Source: a virus (Duplodnaviria > Caudoviricetes). Taken from it: a stretch of 64,000 bases of DNA. The translations under genes and the position numbers were made by a program. The stretch lies in IMG/VR virus record IMGVR_UViG_3300035501_001483; one strand, given 5' to 3'. The notes beneath the pieces were generated by a model. The model was not told where the DNA came from and made no database searches. It saw only the letters and a list, made by a program, of their open reading frames with translations. This document shows, in pieces, positions 5,039-63,996 of the stretch (the stretch's first letter is position 1; every line of letters starts with the position of its first letter).

Positions 5039-5060
5039 AGTCATTCAAGGAATGACTGTT
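5039..5060 (+). repeat. Cassette hairpin, copy 1 (AGTCATTC-AAG-GAATGACT-GTT)
   Basis: One of four covarying copies (5039+, 35681-, 41989+, 63975+). Confidence 0.9.
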
Positions 5061-5152
5061 TTTCAGAGTTAAAAGAATGACCCGAATCGGAAATCAAGCG
5101 CGCTAAACTGACTCAGATCAAGCTTTCAACCCAAAAAGCCCAAAGCCGAAAA

Positions 5153-5180
5153 CTGCGTAAATTTTTAAGCGGGTTTACCA
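5153..5180 (+). repeat. 28-bp direct repeat CTGCGTAAATTTTTAAGCGGGTTTACCA
   Basis: Identical copy at 42079-42106. Confidence 0.9.
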
Positions 5181-5252
5181 AGTATGGGAGTAAGGGCGCG
5201 TCGTGGTGTTAGGACAGACATCGACCAAACCACCACGGCGAAATCATGAATT

Positions 5253-5672
5253 ATGGCAAATGCTTTTATAATGCAAAGTGCGGCATTCTCTGACAAATAT
5301 CGAATCAGCACACAGACCGTAACCAACACTGATAGCACAATGAAAACACTAACATTCACGGCACCATTTACGCCATATGGATTTACAGTTACACACTTAC
5401 CAAAAGCCACTACCACAGGAGCTAATGGATTAGGAGCTAGGATTTATTTTATTCAATGGATAAATGGTTCGTTCACCTACGAAATGGGAGTTATAGGTGA
5501 CGATTATAATGATCGAATGAAATGGTCTGTATGGACCGATTGTCTTACGCTTACGCATTCTAATCTTAAGTATACAATTACAGTGTCATCTGGCGCGCAA
5601 TTTATATACGGCCAAGGCAATGTCTCATACTATGGCAATATCGGTCATTATCTAGTTACAGTATGGGGCTAA
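5253..5672 (+). CDS. Cassette ORF 1: small Ser/Thr/Tyr/Gly-rich beta-strand protein, putative adhesin or fibre tip
   Basis: 139 aa; A/T-ending codons unlike flanking genes; no SD; downstream of the hairpin leader. Confidence 0.6.
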   Translation: MANAFIMQSAAFSDKYRISTQTVTNTDSTMKTLTFTAPFTPYGFTVTHLPKATTTGANGLGARIYFIQWINGSFTYEMGVIGDDYNDRMKWSVWTDCLTLTHSNLKYTITVSSGAQFIYGQGNVSYYGNIGHYLVTVWG

Positions 5673-9347: not shown

Positions 9348-9496
9348 AACATATCGTTAAATATCCCATTGACTCGTGGATATTACTCGGATTTATAAGG
9401 ATGATTTTCTCTTTTCTGTTAGACGCTGGAGTTTGACGATGGATATCTAAGGCTCGCTTAGACATCGGTAAATCCCGGCATTTAACAACCGACTAA
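9348..9496 (+). promoter_or_regulatory. Tandem late promoters of MCP
   Basis: AACA TATCGT TAA (9348-9360) and AACA ACCGAC TAA (9484-9496). Confidence 0.75.
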
Positions 9497-9587
9497 CCCT
9501 GTATATCATCAGAAGACGTGAAAGTTCGACCCTTGACCTGGCGCTATCACGTTTTGCTGTTGAGCAATAAAAGGAGGTAACTACCTT

Positions 9588-15433: not shown

Positions 15434-18348
15434 ATGGCTGATGTAGTAAATCGAAGTAGAACCTACGATGTGATGGAAATCGACCCATATGCTCCCATGC
15501 TTTATGACGATACATATGGGGACCATGATGAAACCGTTATATCTTCGAGATTCCACTCCGATCAAGGCGGCGCTTCTCCAGCGTTGGAAGACGATATCGA
15601 TTCGTTACGCACCGCTGCACAATCCACCTTCGCCAAGAGAAAGCCCATCATTGACTGGAAGACCACCAATCAATCCTTCATCGATGTGCATAACGACTTG
15701 CGAAGGCTTGGCATCAAAAATAACACGTTCTTCCTCAAGCTTTATGATAGAGATCTCCAAGGCGTCGATCCTTTTATGCCAAACCTGCCTCTGGAGATGC
15801 AAATCAAGGTCTATGTGGAGTGCGTTGTCAATCCTTGGTACTATCTAAGAGAGATTGCTAGATGCCCCGCTCAAGGTAAACCCATCGAGCCAGGCGGTGG
15901 TGATCGTTATGTACTGGATCGTAATAACCTTGCGACCTGGTATCTGTACCTGAACCATATTGACAACTATGCATCCAAGCCTCGTCAGACTGGCAAGACC
16001 CAGGATGCGCTCCACAAGGTAAACTATGCGTATCACTTCGGCTCTACTTCATCATCGGCACTACTCTTTAACAAGGACTTGGCCCTGTCCAAGGAGAACC
16101 TTGCTCGTATGAAGGACCAGCGGGATCTATATCCCACATACCTTCAGATGAGAGTGGCATTTGATGAAGAGACCGGCGGCATCATCAAGGGCGCAGACAA
16201 CATCACCACGATGAAGAATCCTGTGACCAATAATACCATCAAGGTGATGCCATGTGCAACCTCCAAGGAAGCAGCGGACCGGCTGGGACGTGGTTATACC
16301 GCCCCCATCTTGCTCTACGATGAGGTTGACTGGGAACAGCACGCCATCACTGTTATGATGGCATCCGTGTTCGCATACTCCACCGCTTCCAAGAATGCAA
16401 TCGATAACCACAGTATGTCATGCAGACTTCTGCTGTCGACTCCTAAACTACCACTGGGAGTCTGAGCCAGTAATGGCTCTAAGAAAATACCTCTTTAATT
16501 GCGGGAAACTCTCGCTAGGCTCAGATTACGAAGCTTATCTAGTGATGGATAAGTTGCAATGGGTAATGCCAAAGGTATCGTAATAAAATCTGAGATAGAG
16601 ACAATCCGCAGCCAATGATCTCGATCGAGATAAAGGTTCATCGACTATCGAAAGGAGATTGATAACTAGAAATACTATCATGAGAACTGAGTAGAGTAGG
16701 CTTCGGCCCAAATAGGAGGCTCCAAGTATCCTGGTTACAGGGATCTTGGATGAAGATATAGTCAGGCTTATGGGAGACCATAAGGTTAGAAATTACGGGT
16801 GATTTATCTACCAGAGACGGTAAAGCCATGAATGATTACATTCGTGGCACAAAAGAGCAGCGTGGCATGATGATCTGGAATGATCGTATGCTAGATGACC
16901 CTATATCGGCATTGAAAGCAGAAGCTCAGTCTACCAAATACAACGGCATTGTCTATGTCGAGCATACTTGGCAGCAGCTGAAGCGCTCTATGGAATGGTA
17001 TGAGCGTCAGTGCAACCTCTGCGGTTATAACCAGGAAGTTATCCTTCGGGAAATCAACCTGCAGAGATTGGCCGGTTCTAGCTTATGCCCCTTCACCAGA
17101 GAGCAGCAGCTGTATCTTTCTACTCATATCCATAAGCCCGTGGAAGAGATCGACGTACGCTCCAAGGATACCATGTCAACCATTAATATCTACGAGAAGT
17201 TTGATCGTCGAATTCCCTACATCATCGGCATTGACCCGGCTGAAGGTCTGAGTGAAGATAATAACGCCATGATCGTGATCAATCCCTTCACATACAAGAT
17301 TGCAGCTGAGTATAAATGCCCCTACATCTCTCCCAAGGAGTTTGCAAAGCTTATCACTGGTTTTATGGACCAGAGATGCCCTCATGCATTACTGGTCGTG
17401 GAGAGTAACCGAGGCCGTGACCTCATTCAGCGTCTGACAGATTCTCATTATGCCAGCAGAGTCTGGTATGATAAGGATCGCATGAACCAGATTCTCACGG
17501 AAAAGACCGATAGATATGGTGGTATTCCACAGTCTGTGCTGGCTCGTAAAGTGCAGGGATTCGTCACTGGGCCTAAGAGCCGCAATCTGCTCTTCAGTTG
17601 TCTGGAGCAGATGGTCATGGAGAATATCGACTGTATATTCTCCAAGAACCTGGTCAATGAGATGCTGACGCTTATCAGAAAACCCACCACTGGTAAGATC
17701 GAGGCCGCTCCTGGAGAGCATGACGACTGTGTCATGGCGTATCTGATTGGGCTCTATGTCTATCTTAATGCGTCCAATCTTGGAGAGTATGGTATTAGCC
17801 GCCATATGAGACGGCCTGATGAGAAGGTCGAGAAGACCGTCGAATCAGAGAGGCAGTATCGAGACCGTGTGAAAGCAGCCATCAATGTCCTGCCTGAGCA
17901 GTATCGCGGCATCTTTGAGGACTTTGTGCGGGAACGTGATCCTATCACGGATGCCCATCAATATGCCAAAGACCTCAGGAAGGCGGAACGAGATGACCCC
18001 TTTAATCAGTTGAAGATGACTCGTCATCGGACCATGGAAGTGGACGAAGATCAAATCTCACTGGATAAATACATGGGTCGAGATGGAACCCAGAAAGTTC
18101 CCGAGCCCAAAGTTGGCATGGAGTATTTCAAGATGGGCGAAACTCTGCAGACACCTCATTACAATTACGGCAGAAGAGACGATGCGTTGTATATTGGAGA
18201 TGAACCTGACGACACTCTCGGGGAAGAAGAACGTTTCACCTTCGAGCAGGGTATTCTGGATATGAATAGGCCACATGAAGATGAATATGGTTATCCTTCT
18301 TACGAAGATGACGATGGGTTTACCTTCGATCCCAACGATTATGCCTAA
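15434..18348 (+). CDS. terL: Terminase large subunit, two exons (15434-16444 and 16798-18348; 853 aa spliced)
   Basis: Walker A KPRQTGKT, Walker B LLYDE; the spliced junction restores STP|GDLST; nuclease motifs IGIDPAEG and HDDCVMA. Confidence 0.93.
16445..16797 (+). mobile_element. Group I intron without ORF (353 nt)
   Basis: P1 GACTCCT/GGGAGTC with U.G pair; AATTGCGGGAA, AATCCGCAGC, GTTCATCGACTA, AAGATATAGTC; terminal G16797; in-frame ligation. Confidence 0.93.
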
Positions 18349-25371: not shown

Positions 25372-25582
25372 ACGATGGACGCATCGTGGCTAGCTCCCTG
25401 CATGTAGCTAGCATGCTTGGTATGCAGGTTCACACGCACGCTGAACTATGGTCTGGCTGCCATAAATGACCGTGCCGGCAGGGGACTGCATGAATGGCAC
25501 GGCGGGCGACGCTTTTCTTTCCTCCATAATCTCCTGTGTACCAGCAAAAAAGAAGACTACCAGAAATGGTAGTCTTCTTTTC
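25372..25582 (+). ncRNA. Putative late structured ncRNA
   Basis: Own TACA-N6-TAA promoter (25360-25372), several hairpins, CCTCC tract, terminator; no SD-led ORF. Confidence 0.45.
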
Positions 25583-26910: not shown

Positions 26911-26923
26911 AACAATCAGCTAA
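26911..26923 (+). promoter_or_regulatory. Late promoter of the sheath-tube operon
   Basis: AACA ATCAGC TAA. Confidence 0.75.
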
Positions 26924-26989
26924 CCACTGTAAAGATCCAAAGTTCGGTAATTTCCCGATCTCTATTACCGATAAAGGAGGTTAATCATA

Positions 26990-30878: not shown

Positions 30879-30914
30879 GAGAAGGCTACTACCAGAGATG
30901 GTAGTAGCCTTCTC
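30879..30914. terminator. Terminator (CTACTACC family)
   Basis: gagaaggctactacca-gaga-tggtagtagccttctc. Confidence 0.75.
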
Positions 30915-31021
30915 AATGCTCTTATGAGAGAAGTGTAGTTCTTCACACGAAGATATGATAGATTTAGATTGAGGGTCGGACACTCTCAATAAAATTTAGG
31001 GTAAGAAAGGTGAGGTAAAAA

Positions 31022-35018: not shown

Positions 35019-35057
35019 TAAGAGACTACTACCGTGAGGTAGTAGTCTCTTTTTTTT
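35019..35057. terminator. Bidirectional terminator (CTACTACC family)
   Basis: aagagactactacc-gtga-ggtagtagtctcttttt. Confidence 0.85.
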
Positions 35058-35476
35058 TATTTCAGAAATGCGATCGCGATTGGATAGCCGCTCGTTGATA
35101 ATTCATATACCGTTGATCCTGAAGATCCTTGCGAATTATAATATAATCCATATAGTGTGATCTGTGTGCCGCTATATATTCCACATATGGATAAATTGCC
35201 ACTCACACCAACCCCATATGAGATGGTTGCGGTTGGTAACGTTGTAATGCATGGGAAAATTACATAGTCGCCAGCTGTTCTAATCGCTGTAATAAGCGCA
35301 GTTCTTATTGTAGATGATGCAGATATTGATGATATGGATGTCCATGTGACTCCGCTACTCAATGAGTTCTTTAAAGTTACGCCAGATGATGGAACTAATG
35401 AGTAGATCTCGCATGCCTGTCCACCTGTTGCAGCAACTGCTTGTAAATAGCTTTGAATAGTTAATCCATCTGCCAT
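35057..35476 (-). CDS. Cassette ORF 2: small Ser/Thr/Gly-rich protein, putative adhesin or fibre tip
   Basis: 139 aa; A/T-ending codons; no SD; hairpin leader. Confidence 0.6.
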   Translation of the reverse strand: MADGLTIQSYLQAVAATGGQACEIYSLVPSSGVTLKNSLSSGVTWTSISSISASSTIRTALITAIRTAGDYVIFPCITTLPTATISYGVGVSGNLSICGIYSGTQITLYGLYYNSQGSSGSTVYELSTSGYPIAIAFLK

Positions 35477-35659
35477 GATTTGTAAATTTGGCGCGGGCTT
35501 CCCGCGCCAGCTTCGTGTCTTTATATCTTATCGACTCTTCGTCAAATGCAATTCCGGGACTTCCAACACCACGCACTAAGCAGCAATTATCCCCGGATTC
35601 GGTCTTTCGCCAGGCCGTTGCATCCAACTTTAAGCGTCTAAGATATGGTTTTAAGCTTG

Positions 35660-35681
35660 AACAGTCGATCCTTGATCGACT
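35660..35681 (-). repeat. Cassette hairpin, copy 2 (AGTCGATC-AAG-GATCGACT-GTT)
   Basis: Compensatory stem changes relative to copies 1 and 3. Confidence 0.9.
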
Positions 35682-35721
35682 CAAACGAGCAAAAAAAAGA
35701 TGCCGCGAGGGCATCTTCTTT

Positions 35722-36600
35722 TTAAACCATTTGCAAAGCCGCCAGCAACGTGTAGATAGTCACGTACGTCGTCCCATTCTTCAGCACTTCCTGAGAGATC
35801 ACATAGTGGAATCGCCCGCCAGATGTATCAATGTCAGGCTGGTCTACCTTGGCGATGGAGAAGATCTGGTCATTGCTCTTCAGGCCAGGGAAGAGATGCT
35901 TGGTGACTGCCACTCTATCCCCATCCAGCGTCACAAACTCTGTGATGTCGTTGTCCAGCATGTCCTGAATGATCTCGCTCTCGATTTGCCGGAACTTCAG
36001 TCCTCTATTCATATACCCAACCAGGTACTGATAGGATGGATCATAGATGAGACTTTGCAACGCCTGCATGTAAGCATCTTCGCCGTCTCGTTTGCGGTTA
36101 GGCAGCTGCAGGAATGGAATCACCAGTTCGTCCTTTGCTGCGGTCTTATCCTCCCGCAGAATTAACGACTGGTTATATAGATCACCATTGCGTTCGCCCA
36201 TGATCACCAACGGCTCCAACTTCGTCTTGTGGAACTCTTTCAGCTTGTCCGCTACTTCCACGGGATTGATCAGGAGCCCTCGCCAGCCAGACAGGTCGTA
36301 TTGGTACTTACCCTTCTCATCAACGAAGGGCGTTACATACATGATGCGCTCCAGATACGGCACGGATGACCGCCCAGCCAAGATATAGCAGCTGGGATGT
36401 TCTGGATTGGTAGGGTCTACGTAGTAGGGCGGAGTCATCGTGCGCATCATAGACGATAACTCCGTGTTTCGATCGATGTCAATGTAGTACAGGTCAAACA
36501 GCTTGGCAGCCATCGTGTTGATTGCTTTCATATCCATAAAGTTCTGAATTACGAAGTCCTCTCTGCTTGACAATTCGGTCGATTTGGGTCTTCTTGCCAT
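35722..36600 (-). CDS. Hypothetical protein
   Basis: 292-aa ORF with RBS and ATATCAT upstream. Confidence 0.7.
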   Translation of the reverse strand: MARRPKSTELSSREDFVIQNFMDMKAINTMAAKLFDLYYIDIDRNTELSSMMRTMTPPYYVDPTNPEHPSCYILAGRSSVPYLERIMYVTPFVDEKGKYQYDLSGWRGLLINPVEVADKLKEFHKTKLEPLVIMGERNGDLYNQSLILREDKTAAKDELVIPFLQLPNRKRDGEDAYMQALQSLIYDPSYQYLVGYMNRGLKFRQIESEIIQDMLDNDITEFVTLDGDRVAVTKHLFPGLKSNDQIFSIAKVDQPDIDTSGGRFHYVISQEVLKNGTTYVTIYTLLAALQMV

Positions 36601-40816: not shown

Positions 40817-41935
40817 ATGGCTCCTAGAAAGAAAGATGTACAGCATCCTGCGCAGTCTAGCTTCAGCAGCTTACTGTCGCAGTTTGTGGGGCAGAACGAG
40901 GGGCTCTCCACCTTCAATGATGCTGCCACTGGCCTTTCCATCAGTCCAGCAATGCTGCATGAGACGGAAAAGCCAGCCAAGAAGAAACCTTCTGCCAAGA
41001 AAGGCAGTTATGATGATATTCTGCTGGATGATGAAAAGCCGCTGGGTGATCTGGACGATATCGGATCACTTCTTCCCGATGACGATGACTACGATGAGAG
41101 CTTTGATACCCTGATTGAAAATGCTTTCATGGAAGATGAAGACGTCACTATGCGCAATAACCTCATTCGCATGGGACGAAAGTACGCTGTCAAGGGTATG
41201 GAAGAGGCCACCGAATCTTCCGAGGTAAACCGTGCTTTCATCAAGCAAGAACAGGCGTTGGAAGCTTTGATGGATGAGATGGACGCTGGTGCTGCCGCGC
41301 TGGATCGCGATATTGAGCAGCTTCGCATGTCTCGTACCAAGAGCTTCAAGGCGCTATCTGATATGGCAGCTGTCCGTGCTTCTCTCTATAATAGCAAGCT
41401 GAGTGTCATCAAAGAGATGAGCAACATCACCAAGACCAAGTACGATATCAATATCAAGCTCAAGAAGGATTCTAACGCCGAATCGGCTGACACAGGTATG
41501 GCAGCTACCCAAGCTGTCCAGCGCTTGCTGTCCATCGGACGCCAGAACCTCATGGCTGGTGAAGAGGAGTACGTGTCGATGGGCGATTCGCCTGCCGACG
41601 CGCACTTTGATGATGGGCGCGCCGAGACGGCATTACATCTGGCCGCTGATATCCCTCCTGCCGAAACCGATGGAGATAAATTCATTGAGCATGAGGGAGA
41701 GGGCGTGGAATACGTCGTGGACATCAATTCCGAGGACGACTCCAAGATGATTTACGCTGTCAATAAAGATGGCAAGATCGTCGAGGATTATCCCATGCCC
41801 AGCAATCAAGATCAGCTGTCTTTCTCTTTGAATGAATTGGCCGGTGAAGCAACCGATCAGCTGCAGCGCCGGTACAGACTACGGAGAGATGGTCAAGATG
41901 TACTACCTCGTGGATTTGGCGAAGACGAACTTTGA
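40817..41935 (+). CDS. Late acidic coiled-coil protein
   Basis: CACA-N6-TAA at 40755-40767; AAGGAG RBS. Confidence 0.7.
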   Translation: MAPRKKDVQHPAQSSFSSLLSQFVGQNEGLSTFNDAATGLSISPAMLHETEKPAKKKPSAKKGSYDDILLDDEKPLGDLDDIGSLLPDDDDYDESFDTLIENAFMEDEDVTMRNNLIRMGRKYAVKGMEEATESSEVNRAFIKQEQALEALMDEMDAGAAALDRDIEQLRMSRTKSFKALSDMAAVRASLYNSKLSVIKEMSNITKTKYDINIKLKKDSNAESADTGMAATQAVQRLLSIGRQNLMAGEEEYVSMGDSPADAHFDDGRAETALHLAADIPPAETDGDKFIEHEGEGVEYVVDINSEDDSKMIYAVNKDGKIVEDYPMPSNQDQLSFSLNELAGEATDQLQRRYRLRRDGQDVLPRGFGEDEL

Positions 41936-41949
41936 TCCCTGAGATGCCT

Positions 41950-41986
41950 AAGAGCACCTACCTAGAAGACTAGGTAGGTGCTCTTT
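41950..41986 (+). terminator. Intrinsic terminator
   Basis: aagagcacctacctag-aaga-ctaggtaggtgctcttt. Confidence 0.85.
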
Positions 41987-41988
41987 GA

Positions 41989-42010
41989 AGTCATTCAAGG
42001 AATGACTGTT
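41989..42010 (+). repeat. Cassette hairpin, copy 3
   Basis: AGTCATTCAAGGAATGACTGTT, identical to copy 1. Confidence 0.9.
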
Positions 42011-42078
42011 TTCAGATTAAGCTTTTCAAATTTGGCCTTACAATCCCGAGTTTTCAAGGCGATTTTTAGGCTCGGAAT

Positions 42079-42106
42079 CTGCGTAAATTTTTAAGCGGGT
42101 TTACCA
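42079..42106 (+). repeat. 28-bp direct repeat, copy 2
   Basis: Identical to 5153-5180. Confidence 0.9.
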
Positions 42107-42147
42107 GACGGGACGGCGCACTCCGTGCGCCATTCTTTAGCACTTAA

Positions 42148-42618
42148 ATGGGTGCATGTGTTGGATTACAAACGGGTATCGCCGGCGCTGGGCTCAAATT
42201 ATCACAAACTCTAAAATACAACACGACTGCACAATCGTCCATATCGGCTTGGCAAAGCATTACAATACAATCATTTGCATTTAATTCGTACTCATTTGCA
42301 TTTGCTCAAATATCGTTCCCAGCAATCACAGTTACGAAAGCATCTTGCGAATTTTATAAAGCAGCAACTCTCACATATCGTGAATGGATTAAATCTGATA
42401 TTGGAACTGTGTATATCAGCTACACTTCTAGTGGCGTAGACATAATCTCTAACAGTTCCTTTACAATCTCGGCTTTAAATCAAATTCTTCCATATAGTTC
42501 AACGTATACGTATGGAATATCTGTAACACTCAGCAGTACAACGACAGTCGGAAGCTCGGCGTATATAACCTTTTCAATGCCGAGTGTGACATGCACCGTC
42601 AATATGTACAGCATCTAG
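42148..42618 (+). CDS. Cassette ORF 3: small Ser/Thr-rich beta protein, putative adhesin or fibre tip
   Basis: 156 aa; A/T-ending codons; no SD; hairpin leader. Confidence 0.6.
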   Translation: MGACVGLQTGIAGAGLKLSQTLKYNTTAQSSISAWQSITIQSFAFNSYSFAFAQISFPAITVTKASCEFYKAATLTYREWIKSDIGTVYISYTSSGVDIISNSSFTISALNQILPYSSTYTYGISVTLSSTTTVGSSAYITFSMPSVTCTVNMYSI

Positions 42619-42660
42619 CAAAAAAGAAGCTACTACCGCAAGGTAGTAGCTTCTCTTAGC

Positions 42661-52636: not shown

Positions 52637-52674
52637 AAGAAGACTACCATCTCTGGTAGTCTTCTTTTTTGATG

Positions 52675-61482: not shown

Positions 61483-61555
61483 AAGACCATAGCTCAGATG
61501 GGAGAGCGTCAGTCTAATAAACTGAAGGTCGTCGGTTCGAGTCCGGCTGGGTGGC
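61483..61555 (+). tRNA. tRNA-like RNA, anticodon AAT (Ile), degenerate acceptor stem
   Basis: D arm GCTC/GAGC; anticodon arm TCAGT-CTAATAA-ACTGA; T arm GTCGG-TTCGAGT-CCGGC; acceptor only 3-4 bp; no CCA. Confidence 0.65.
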
Positions 61556-63572: not shown

Positions 63573-63737
63573 TTCAAAGATTCGCCTTCTTCACTTCGAG
63601 GGATTGCTTCTTGATTAGCCGATTGTCAATGGGCTCGAAATTGGTGTGAGAGATGAGAATAACAGAGCGATAAAATTCTGACTTTTATCGTACTATGTAC
63701 ATATAGAAGATAATACCTTTTGAAGGAGGAGAATTTT

Positions 63738-63929
63738 ATGGCACTTCCTGACGTAAACACCATTCGTGAGTACTACCTGAGTGGTAAGTGGAACGATAGA
63801 ATGCTGCAGGTGGCGTTGGTCTGCAAAGCCATCACCAAGGACGATGTGGAGTCCATCAAGGCCGAGAAAGCCGCCGCTGCTGAGAAGTCTACCAAAAAGA
63901 GCAGCAAGAAGAGCAAGGCTACTACCTGA
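63738..63929 (+). CDS. XkdX-family protein
   Basis: IREYYLSGKWNDRMLQVALVCKAITKDDVESI fits the XkdX pattern; late promoter 63661-63673; AAGGAGG RBS. Confidence 0.7.
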   Translation: MALPDVNTIREYYLSGKWNDRMLQVALVCKAITKDDVESIKAEKAAAAEKSTKKSSKKSKATT

Positions 63930-63973
63930 AAGAAGAGACGATACCTGACGGCGCAGGTATCGTCTCTTCTTTT
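63930..63973 (+). terminator. Intrinsic terminator
   Basis: aagaagagacgatacctg...caggtatcgtctcttctttt. Confidence 0.85.
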
Positions 63974-63974
63974 A

Positions 63975-63996
63975 AGTCGTTCAAGGAACGACTGTT
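63975..63996 (+). repeat. Cassette hairpin, copy 4 (AGTCGTTC-AAG-GAACGACT-GTT)
   Basis: Third stem variant; predicted cassette continues beyond the window. Confidence 0.85.

Follow-up and report, generated by a model that had tools for sequence, protein, structure and literature searches.

H1, a short hairpin at positions 35660..35681 of the phage DNA studied here, was found to be the 5' boundary of paralogous gene cassettes lacking a Shine-Dalgarno sequence, a key context absent from an earlier sequence-only reading of the same DNA. Judged by comparison among related genomes, H1 is a real element whose structure is under selection; it is strand-specific, and its presence is diagnostic of a cassette system confined to one lineage. 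As to its function, we tentatively favor a leader hairpin acting at the RNA level, which would be read by a putative protein and would define or protect the 5' end of the cassette mRNA.

The phage and the analysed window

The window, a stretch of 64,000 nucleotides (IMG/VR record IMGVR_UViG_3300035501_001483), derives from an uncultured jumbo myovirus with AR9-like multisubunit RNA polymerases of its own, as indicated by PHROG matches and by comparison of the sheath. The matches comprised tail sheath, major head protein, terminase, DNA polymerase, NAD-ligase and pieces of RNA polymerase, the polymerase-like ORFs of this partial genome matching multisubunit RNA polymerase PHROGs. A Pfam family was absent for most window ORFs. 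The largest of them, of 978 aa, encodes the tail sheath protein, which was less than 30% identical to those of AR9, PBS1, phiR1-37 and Staphylococcus jumbo phages. Neither tRNA-rich nor ribosomal features were seen in the window. JGI contig L001 served to extend it to position 73572.

Copies of H1 in the window and just beyond

The pattern AGTCNNTCAAGGANNGACTGTT was present in four exact copies in the window, with none expected by chance, and no further copy was found there when up to three mismatches were allowed.

5039..5060 (+): H1 copy c1, AGTCATTC-AAG-GAATGACT followed by GTT
35660..35681 (-): H1 copy c2, the finding under study, AGTCGATC-AAG-GATCGACT followed by GTT
41989..42010 (+): H1 copy c3, identical to c1
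63975..63996 (+): H1 copy c4, AGTCGTTC-AAG-GAACGACT followed by GTT

Perfect complementarity, an AAG loop and a GTT tail were common to all four. Predicted folding energies ranged from -8 to -9.8 kcal/mol as RNA (z -3.3 to -4.1 against shuffled controls) and from -5.5 to -6.5 kcal/mol as DNA, again well outside shuffled controls. In copy c1, the 3' arm GAATGACT (5050-5057) was nearly repeated 24 nt downstream of the arm as GAATGACC (5082-5089), which gives the 5' arm an alternative partner in this copy only.

A fifth copy (c5) was located 3 kb beyond the window end, with the sequence AGTCCT-GTA-AGGACT GTT, thus a 6-bp stem and a GTA loop. It sits behind a terminator and is followed by a leader and an ORF of the same kind as in the window. 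Three of the four window copies likewise lie just behind a terminator on their own strand, at 4-16 nt.

35697..35717 (-): terminator of gene 35722-36600(-), its stem ending 15 nt (T-tract and linker) ahead of H1 c2
41951..41984 (+): terminator of gene 40817-41935, 4 nt ahead of H1 c3
63934..63967 (+): terminator of the small gene 63720-63929, 7 nt ahead of H1 c4

Copy c1 occupies a divergent intergenic region, and no strong same-strand terminator precedes it. Many terminators of the window share one stem, AAGAGACTACTACC...GGTAGTAGTCTCTT and close variants, forming perfect and often bidirectional palindromes (35020-35051, 42626-42653, 52637-52674, 25540-25580, 30895-30915 and others).

H1 itself is not an intrinsic terminator. 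A U-tract was absent from c2 (GTTCAAG), c4 (GTTCATG), c5 and all copies of the type found in relative G1 (e.g. TGTAGAA), and only c1 was called terminator-like by a consensus scan. The sequence-only reading had already placed three of the four copies behind same-strand terminators and had seen that two copies, now identified as c2 and c4, lack a U-tract; both points were borne out. Its claim that AGTC, C-AAG-G and GACTGTT are invariant was accurate inside the window and failed for c5 and for the relatives described below.

Distribution among related phages

A search of IMG/VR with the capsid protein returned two close contigs, G1 (176 kb, 79% identical) and G2 (58 kb, 84%), and further AT-rich genomes that were more distant. 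The extended window and these relatives were screened for perfectly paired AG...CT hairpins with GTT or TGT behind them. Five true copies were obtained in the extended window, 12 in G1 and four in G2, the remaining matches corresponding to the shuffled expectation; some of the G1 copies form a tandem array (28.4-35 kb). Three more G1 copies (AACCT twice and AGCCCT) were obtained with a covariance model of the G1-type leader (R1), while the window-type and G2-type leaders were out of its reach. An additional relative, L055, contributed stems ACTCATTC and AGTCATTC.

Exact IMG/VR searches with the window motif and with a 28-nt box of the leader gave no match, and a scan with AGNCCTGTAAGGNCTKGT recovered only contig G1 itself and unrelated coding or terminator matches. 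When metagenomes were scanned with the same 18 fixed bases and free NN/NN positions, 20 loci were found: 19 were non-complementary, unrelated chance matches, and the sole complementary one was L055, a relative of the phage. In total, about 40 copies of H1 are known, distributed over four to five genomes of related phages, and about 35 of them are additional to c5 and those of the window.

In the distant relatives G3 and G4 (28-31% GC, capsid proteins 57-58% identical), H1-like hairpins occurred at chance level only and no homologue of the cassette proteins was found. The joint absence of the hairpin and of the protein family from these genomes indicates that the system is specific to one lineage.

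Conservation and covariation

Fourteen distinct stems of 5-8 bp were recorded among the roughly 40 copies, all of them perfectly paired: AGTCATTC, AGTCGATC, AGTCGTTC, ACTCATTC, AGTTGCAT, AGTCATT, AGTCGA, AGTCCT, AGACCT, AGCCT, AACCT, AGCCCT, AGGCCT and AGGCCC. At least seven differ by double substitutions at a single pair, and paired changes were seen at four positions.

Position 2: G-C to C-G or A-T
Position 3: T-A to A-T, G-C or C-G
Position 5: A-T to G-C
Position 6: T-A to A-T or C-G

Loops were of 3-4 nt, with one of 7 nt, and the hairpin measured 13-22 nt overall. In G1-type arrays the tail reads TGT, and a single copy has GTA instead. AAG was kept in 19 of 19 aligned copies, although its structural place shifts: it forms the loop in the window copies and, in the CCT-GTA-AGG types, the last loop base together with the first bases of the 3' arm, giving (Y)AAGG as the common denominator.

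H1 is thus under structural selection, specific in strand and orientation and strictly tied to its cassettes. The compensated NN/NN substitutions reported earlier from four copies were matched by complementarity in four of four copies, 19 of the 20 metagenome loci being non-complementary and the other one belonging to a relative; the covariation extended to the larger set of 14 stems. The earlier proposal of a folded signal other than a terminator, with selection on structure and on some of the sequence, is therefore strongly supported by the copies now known.

The cassettes

Read on its strand, H1 opens the cassette, ahead of a leader that contains additional hairpins, an AT-rich ORF and a terminator. 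In all genomes examined the leader spans about 45-215 nt and the ORF 100-190 aa. An ORF of that size was found within 46-214 nt of H1 at 23 of 23 tested sites, and H1 always stood at the 5' edge of cassettes in the relatives. The relation also held in the opposite direction, since contigs retrieved independently with a profile of the cassette protein displayed H1 ahead of every cassette. Window-type leaders are 135-195 nt long and end in a GC-rich hairpin (H2) 10-16 nt ahead of the start codon; window-type ORFs range from 112 to 159 aa, and from 139 to 156 aa in the three complete window cassettes.

5061..5252 (+): leader of c1, with the 28-nt box at 5153-5180 and the GC-rich H2 at 5200-5239, 13 nt ahead of the ATG; no Shine-Dalgarno
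5253..5672 (+): cassette ORF of c1, 139 aa, GC 0.39, no protein family
35477..35659 (-): leader of c2, with H2 at 35490-35508 (GGCGCGGG-AAG-CCCGCGCC), 13 nt ahead of the ATG; no Shine-Dalgarno
35057..35476 (-): cassette ORF of c2, 139 aa, GC 0.40, no protein family
42011..42147 (+): leader of c3, with the 28-nt box at 42079-42106 and H2 at 42115-42131; no Shine-Dalgarno
42148..42618 (+): cassette ORF of c3, 156 aa, GC 0.40, no protein family

The leader and ORF of c4 extend past the window end and are visible in L001. The cassette ORFs had the lowest GC among the genes (0.36-0.40 versus a mean of 0.49), and a Shine-Dalgarno match of at least 4 nt preceded none of five, versus 37 of 58 other genes in a crude gene list. 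They are passed over by standard gene callers, which explains why two of them were absent from the records in an exact look-up; H1 is therefore a useful marker for such ORFs. Their products constitute one very divergent family, recognizable by an N-terminus near MA(E/D)A(F/V)T and by a C-terminal strand that is hydrophobic. Neither Pfam nor PHROG provided a family for them, and an AlphaFold model reached a pLDDT of 42.

Promoter motifs of the phage

Two other classes of candidate transcription signals were recognized. The genes for the major capsid and tail sheath proteins are preceded by AACA-N6-TA (9484-9497 and 26911-26924, +), and the full motif at these genes, TTAACAA(C/T)C(G/A)(A/G)CTAACC, is conserved in G1 and G2. 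Its match to the late consensus of phage AR9 suggests an AR9-like specificity of the non-virion polymerase. The second motif, ATATCAT, was counted 38 times in the window, in many cases 25-60 nt upstream of genes for replication or transcription and also of a tRNA-like gene; it likely represents an early or middle promoter class. Four of its copies have in common the longer form CCGTATTT(A/G)-N15-ATATCATT(C/T)TTATGA.

ATATCAT examples, strand in brackets:
58317 (-)
44456 (-)
40784 (-)
36632 (-)
21239 (+)
61460 (+)

Neither AACA-N6-TR nor ATATCAT was present in H1 or in the cassette leaders, and no sigma-70-type site was found on the sense strand of the three complete cassette regions. Rfam searches at E<=1 reported only a group I intron and a tRNA in the window, and nothing above the gathering score in the G1 cassette array.

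Several other ways of deriving expression signals from the cassettes were considered and rejected. An AR9-like reading of TGTT in the H1 tail misfits at -1/+1, would direct transcription away from the cassette and is not applicable to G1-type tails, which lack TGTT. A leftward, N4-like reading finds a divergent gene on that side in only two of about 40 copies. The apex AAGG(A) is unlikely to serve as a remote Shine-Dalgarno, since most of its bases are paired and 60-200 nt separate it from the start codon. A leaderless mRNA starting from a promoter in H2 is not compatible with the variable spacing between H2 and the ATG (6-22 nt).

Comparison with known systems

Short repeated control modules organize the variable regions of phage genomes, and few kinds of them are understood, among which promoter-early stem-loop (PeSL) cassettes and N4 hairpin promoters. 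These two are also the closest known kinds to H1, PeSLs having the same genomic role built from different parts, and N4 promoters the same anatomy on a different strand and with a different enzyme.

PeSL cassettes of T4-type phages carry a strong sigma-70-type promoter, and their 3' end consists of a Shine-Dalgarno and a start codon (Arbiol et al. 2010, PMC2839356). The H1 cassettes share with them short, repeated, non-coding stem-loop modules that bound small orphan genes in variable regions, beside terminators, as well as the swapping of ORFs between homologous modules of related phages, the cassette at the c1 site being present, absent or different in three phages. In contrast to PeSLs, they have neither a sigma-70-type promoter nor a Shine-Dalgarno, their hairpin H1 is distinct from the terminator, and the leader downstream of H1 is long and structured.

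The early promoters P1-P3 of N4 are hairpins read by the virion RNA polymerase, with a G-purine-A loop on the template strand; the loop includes a sheared G:A pair and the hairpin is centered at -11 from the mapped start (PMC4496689). H1 resembles them in its stems of 5-8 bp, loops of about 3 nt and few conserved bases, the others being free as long as they are paired, and in heading transcription units. However, its purine loops (GTA, GCA, AAG) are in the cassette sense, so the template strand would carry TAC, TGC and CTT, and only multisubunit-polymerase genes were seen in the window, as opposed to the T7-like giant polymerase of N4.

AR9 promoters are linear: A(-11)ACA-N6-T-A/G(+1) on the non-template strand for the late class, and AT-rich 10-mers near -10 for the early class (PMC7598289). 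The present phage is similar in its AACA-N6-TA at capsid and sheath genes and its AT-rich ATATCAT at replication and transcription genes, while H1 differs from both in being folded.

Hairpins at mRNA ends form a further group, with the ompA 5' stem-loop and sites of hairpin-guided endonucleases, such as Cas6 repeats, as examples. H1 is comparable to these in being short and stable, in its location, either where a leader begins or between read-through cistrons, and in having a conserved base by a possible cleavage point. Classical 5' stabilizer hairpins are not known to show sequence conservation.

A proposed leader hairpin acting in RNA

Among the broad list of functions suggested by the sequence-only reading, two are now prominent, an RNA-level signal, which we tentatively prefer, and a hairpin promoter, its main rival, which is somewhat less likely; the nick or recombination site on that list has lost ground.

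In the preferred model, H1 would be the first helix of a portable, cassette-specific 5' leader acting in the sense-strand RNA. Cassettes would be transcribed largely by read-through or co-transcription from the upstream gene, H1 being transcribed in all copies and folding directly behind the upstream terminator or stop codon. A putative protein would recognize the base and apex of the hairpin, AG...(Y)AAGG...CU-GU, and would then set and guard the 5' terminus of that mRNA, with H1 serving to determine processing and/or to stabilize the 5' end. Translation of the cassette mRNA would depend on the leader instead of a Shine-Dalgarno.

Several features of the cassettes are consistent with this model. 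Downstream of H1 the leader behaves as RNA: among 14 G1-type leaders, helix H2 covaries (CG/UA 7:7, GC/CG, GC/AU) and includes closing pairs of the G.U type. The G1-type H1 helix extends to CAAGCCT/AGGCTTG plus one pair alternating between U.G and C-G, an alternation valid only in sense-strand RNA, although the extension is weak and draws on the upstream T-tract. On the sense strand, the loops are purine-rich (GUA, GCA and GUAA, which are GNA/GNRA-like, and AAG). At three loci (L055, G1 14218 and G1 108110), the stop codon of the preceding ORF overlaps H1 or adjoins it and a terminator is lacking, so that H1 must be transcribed there. Within the same arrays, genes that lack H1 have a Shine-Dalgarno directly behind a terminator-like hairpin, which leaves no room for a promoter; read-through would thus be normal in these arrays, with the H1 leader standing in for the ribosome-binding site. 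As the search upstream of H1 revealed no promoter and strong terminator-like hairpins precede most copies, the supply of transcripts by read-through is an assumption of the model.

Some observations do not favor RNA. H1 is the 5' edge of sequence conservation, the usual place of a promoter. None of the approximately 40 copies contained a G.U pair in H1 proper, a scan for one-mismatch or G.T variants of H1 returned none, and leaders folded equally well in sense and antisense (mean difference -0.1 kcal/mol, 15 of 27 favoring sense). Given this strict pairing and the equal folding of both strands, nothing in H1 itself proves RNA over DNA. Neither of these two tests discriminates, however, because the terminators of this phage are perfect palindromes as well.

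If H1 is an RNA signal, it points to a hairpin-specific RNA-binding or RNA-cutting factor and to expression independent of Shine-Dalgarno sequences. H1 sets apart a private expression class of AT-rich, hypervariable small proteins with no ribosome-binding site in an uncultured clade of giant phages.

A possible DNA hairpin promoter

The promoter alternative, in which H1 would be a DNA hairpin (cruciform) and represent a third promoter class, follows the logic of N4 early promoters and involves a jumbo-phage RNA polymerase or specificity factor, transcription starting at or just past the conserved GT of the tail. It accounts for the fact that the repeated module between ORFs starts with H1 and its tail and is most conserved in this part, and for the leaders being devoid of sigma-70-type, ATATCAT and AACA-N6-TR motifs, the last two of which are present at other genes of the phage. 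The location just behind terminators is typical of phage promoters, the stems are strictly Watson-Crick, and the combination of conserved bases, freely covarying positions, 5-8 bp stems and 3-4 nt loops fits N4 P1-P3 (PMC4496689). On the other hand, the purine GNA-type loops are on the non-template strand, whereas N4 uses the template strand, and no N4-like giant polymerase was seen in the window, where the polymerase ORFs match multisubunit families; for related multisubunit phage polymerases, the promoters known so far consist of short linear motifs (PMC7598289). Moreover, some stems are only 5 bp long, with about -3 kcal/mol as DNA, and read-through is evidently what serves those genes of the same arrays that have no H1. 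That such a promoter would be served by a multisubunit jumbo-phage RNA polymerase or an attached factor, on the N4 principle but of independent origin, is doubtful. If H1 were a promoter, hairpin-promoter logic would reach beyond N4-like phages into an unrelated enzyme family.

Improbable readings: insulator, exchange site and operator

It is improbable that H1 is a second, non-canonical stop or insulator hairpin completing the upstream terminator. The short distance to terminator stems, 4-16 nt in three of the four window copies and in most copies of the relatives, would be expected of such an element, as would the GTTTT(T) tails of c1 and c3 and the terminator-like call for c1. However, most terminators, including those of the cassettes themselves, have no H1, the U-tract is missing in c2, c4 and all G1-type copies, and both c1 and G2 13298 are located in divergent regions where there is nothing to terminate on that strand. 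Furthermore, it is always the downstream leader, never the gene ahead, with which H1 travels.

At syntenic sites, a cassette may be present, missing or replaced by another: the one at the c1 site is absent in G1, and a different one is found in G2. This variability, the tandem arrays with hairpins between cassettes, a TnpB gene inside one array and a reverse transcriptase gene near c5 could all be reconciled with H1 being a site of recombination or mobility, i.e. an attC-like or IS200/IS605-like folded DNA for the insertion or exchange of cassettes. Comparison of G1 with the closely related L073 showed that ORFs were replaced between conserved modules composed of terminator, H1, leader and first codons, with breakpoints some 20-30 nt into the ORF and close to where it ends, and not at H1. 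The pattern resembles the exchange by homology that repeated modules undergo in the case of PeSLs. Breakpoints of close relatives in the leader or first codons and in the 3' terminator are those expected of ordinary homologous recombination, and they weigh against the nick or recombination site proposed by the first reading. The 3' end of the cassette also has no second matching hairpin, and no integrase or TnpA was seen adjoining cassettes. Integron attC sites are imperfect palindromes of 57-141 bp with extrahelical bases, located 3' of a promoterless ORF and crossed over at G/TT by the integrase; this architecture is absent from H1, a perfect hairpin of 13-22 nt located 5' of a leader. A role of H1 in recombination is accordingly quite improbable.

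A palindromic dsDNA operator for a dimeric regulator, to which the perfect palindrome and conserved outer bases might point, is highly improbable, as stem lengths of 5-8 bp and loops of 3-7 nt change the distance between outer half-sites within one genome, which a rigid operator bound by a dimer would hardly tolerate but a folded single strand would, and as the inner positions vary yet stay complementary, which a dimer does not require.

Other elements of the window and its relatives

16435-16784 (+): group I intron, scored at 76.9 bits with Rfam and flanked by ORF 15434-16465 and the terminase-like ORF 16828-18348
61487-61550 (+): tRNA-like gene (Rfam RF00005, 49 bits), missed by ARAGORN
L001 1720-3090 (window-equivalent about 70483-71853, minus strand): reverse transcriptase gene, 3.4 kb from cassette c5
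L017 11124-12440 (contig G1 31024-32340): gene for a TnpB-type RNA-guided endonuclease (NCBIfam guided_TnpB, 155 bits), within the G1 array

The reverse transcriptase had its best match, below the family cut-off, in group II intron RT/maturases. In the tRNA-like gene, the anticodon loop reads CTAATAA, which by position makes AAT the anticodon, and pairing in the acceptor stem is poor; the gene is preceded by the motif CCGTATTTAC-N15-ATATCATTTTTATGAG. In G1-type leaders, the apex of H2 was nearly invariant, (G)CAACAAGCGAAGCG (L017 9151-14115, L073 7447-11090). This apex contains GCGAAGC, a very stable DNA and RNA mini-hairpin with a GAA triloop.
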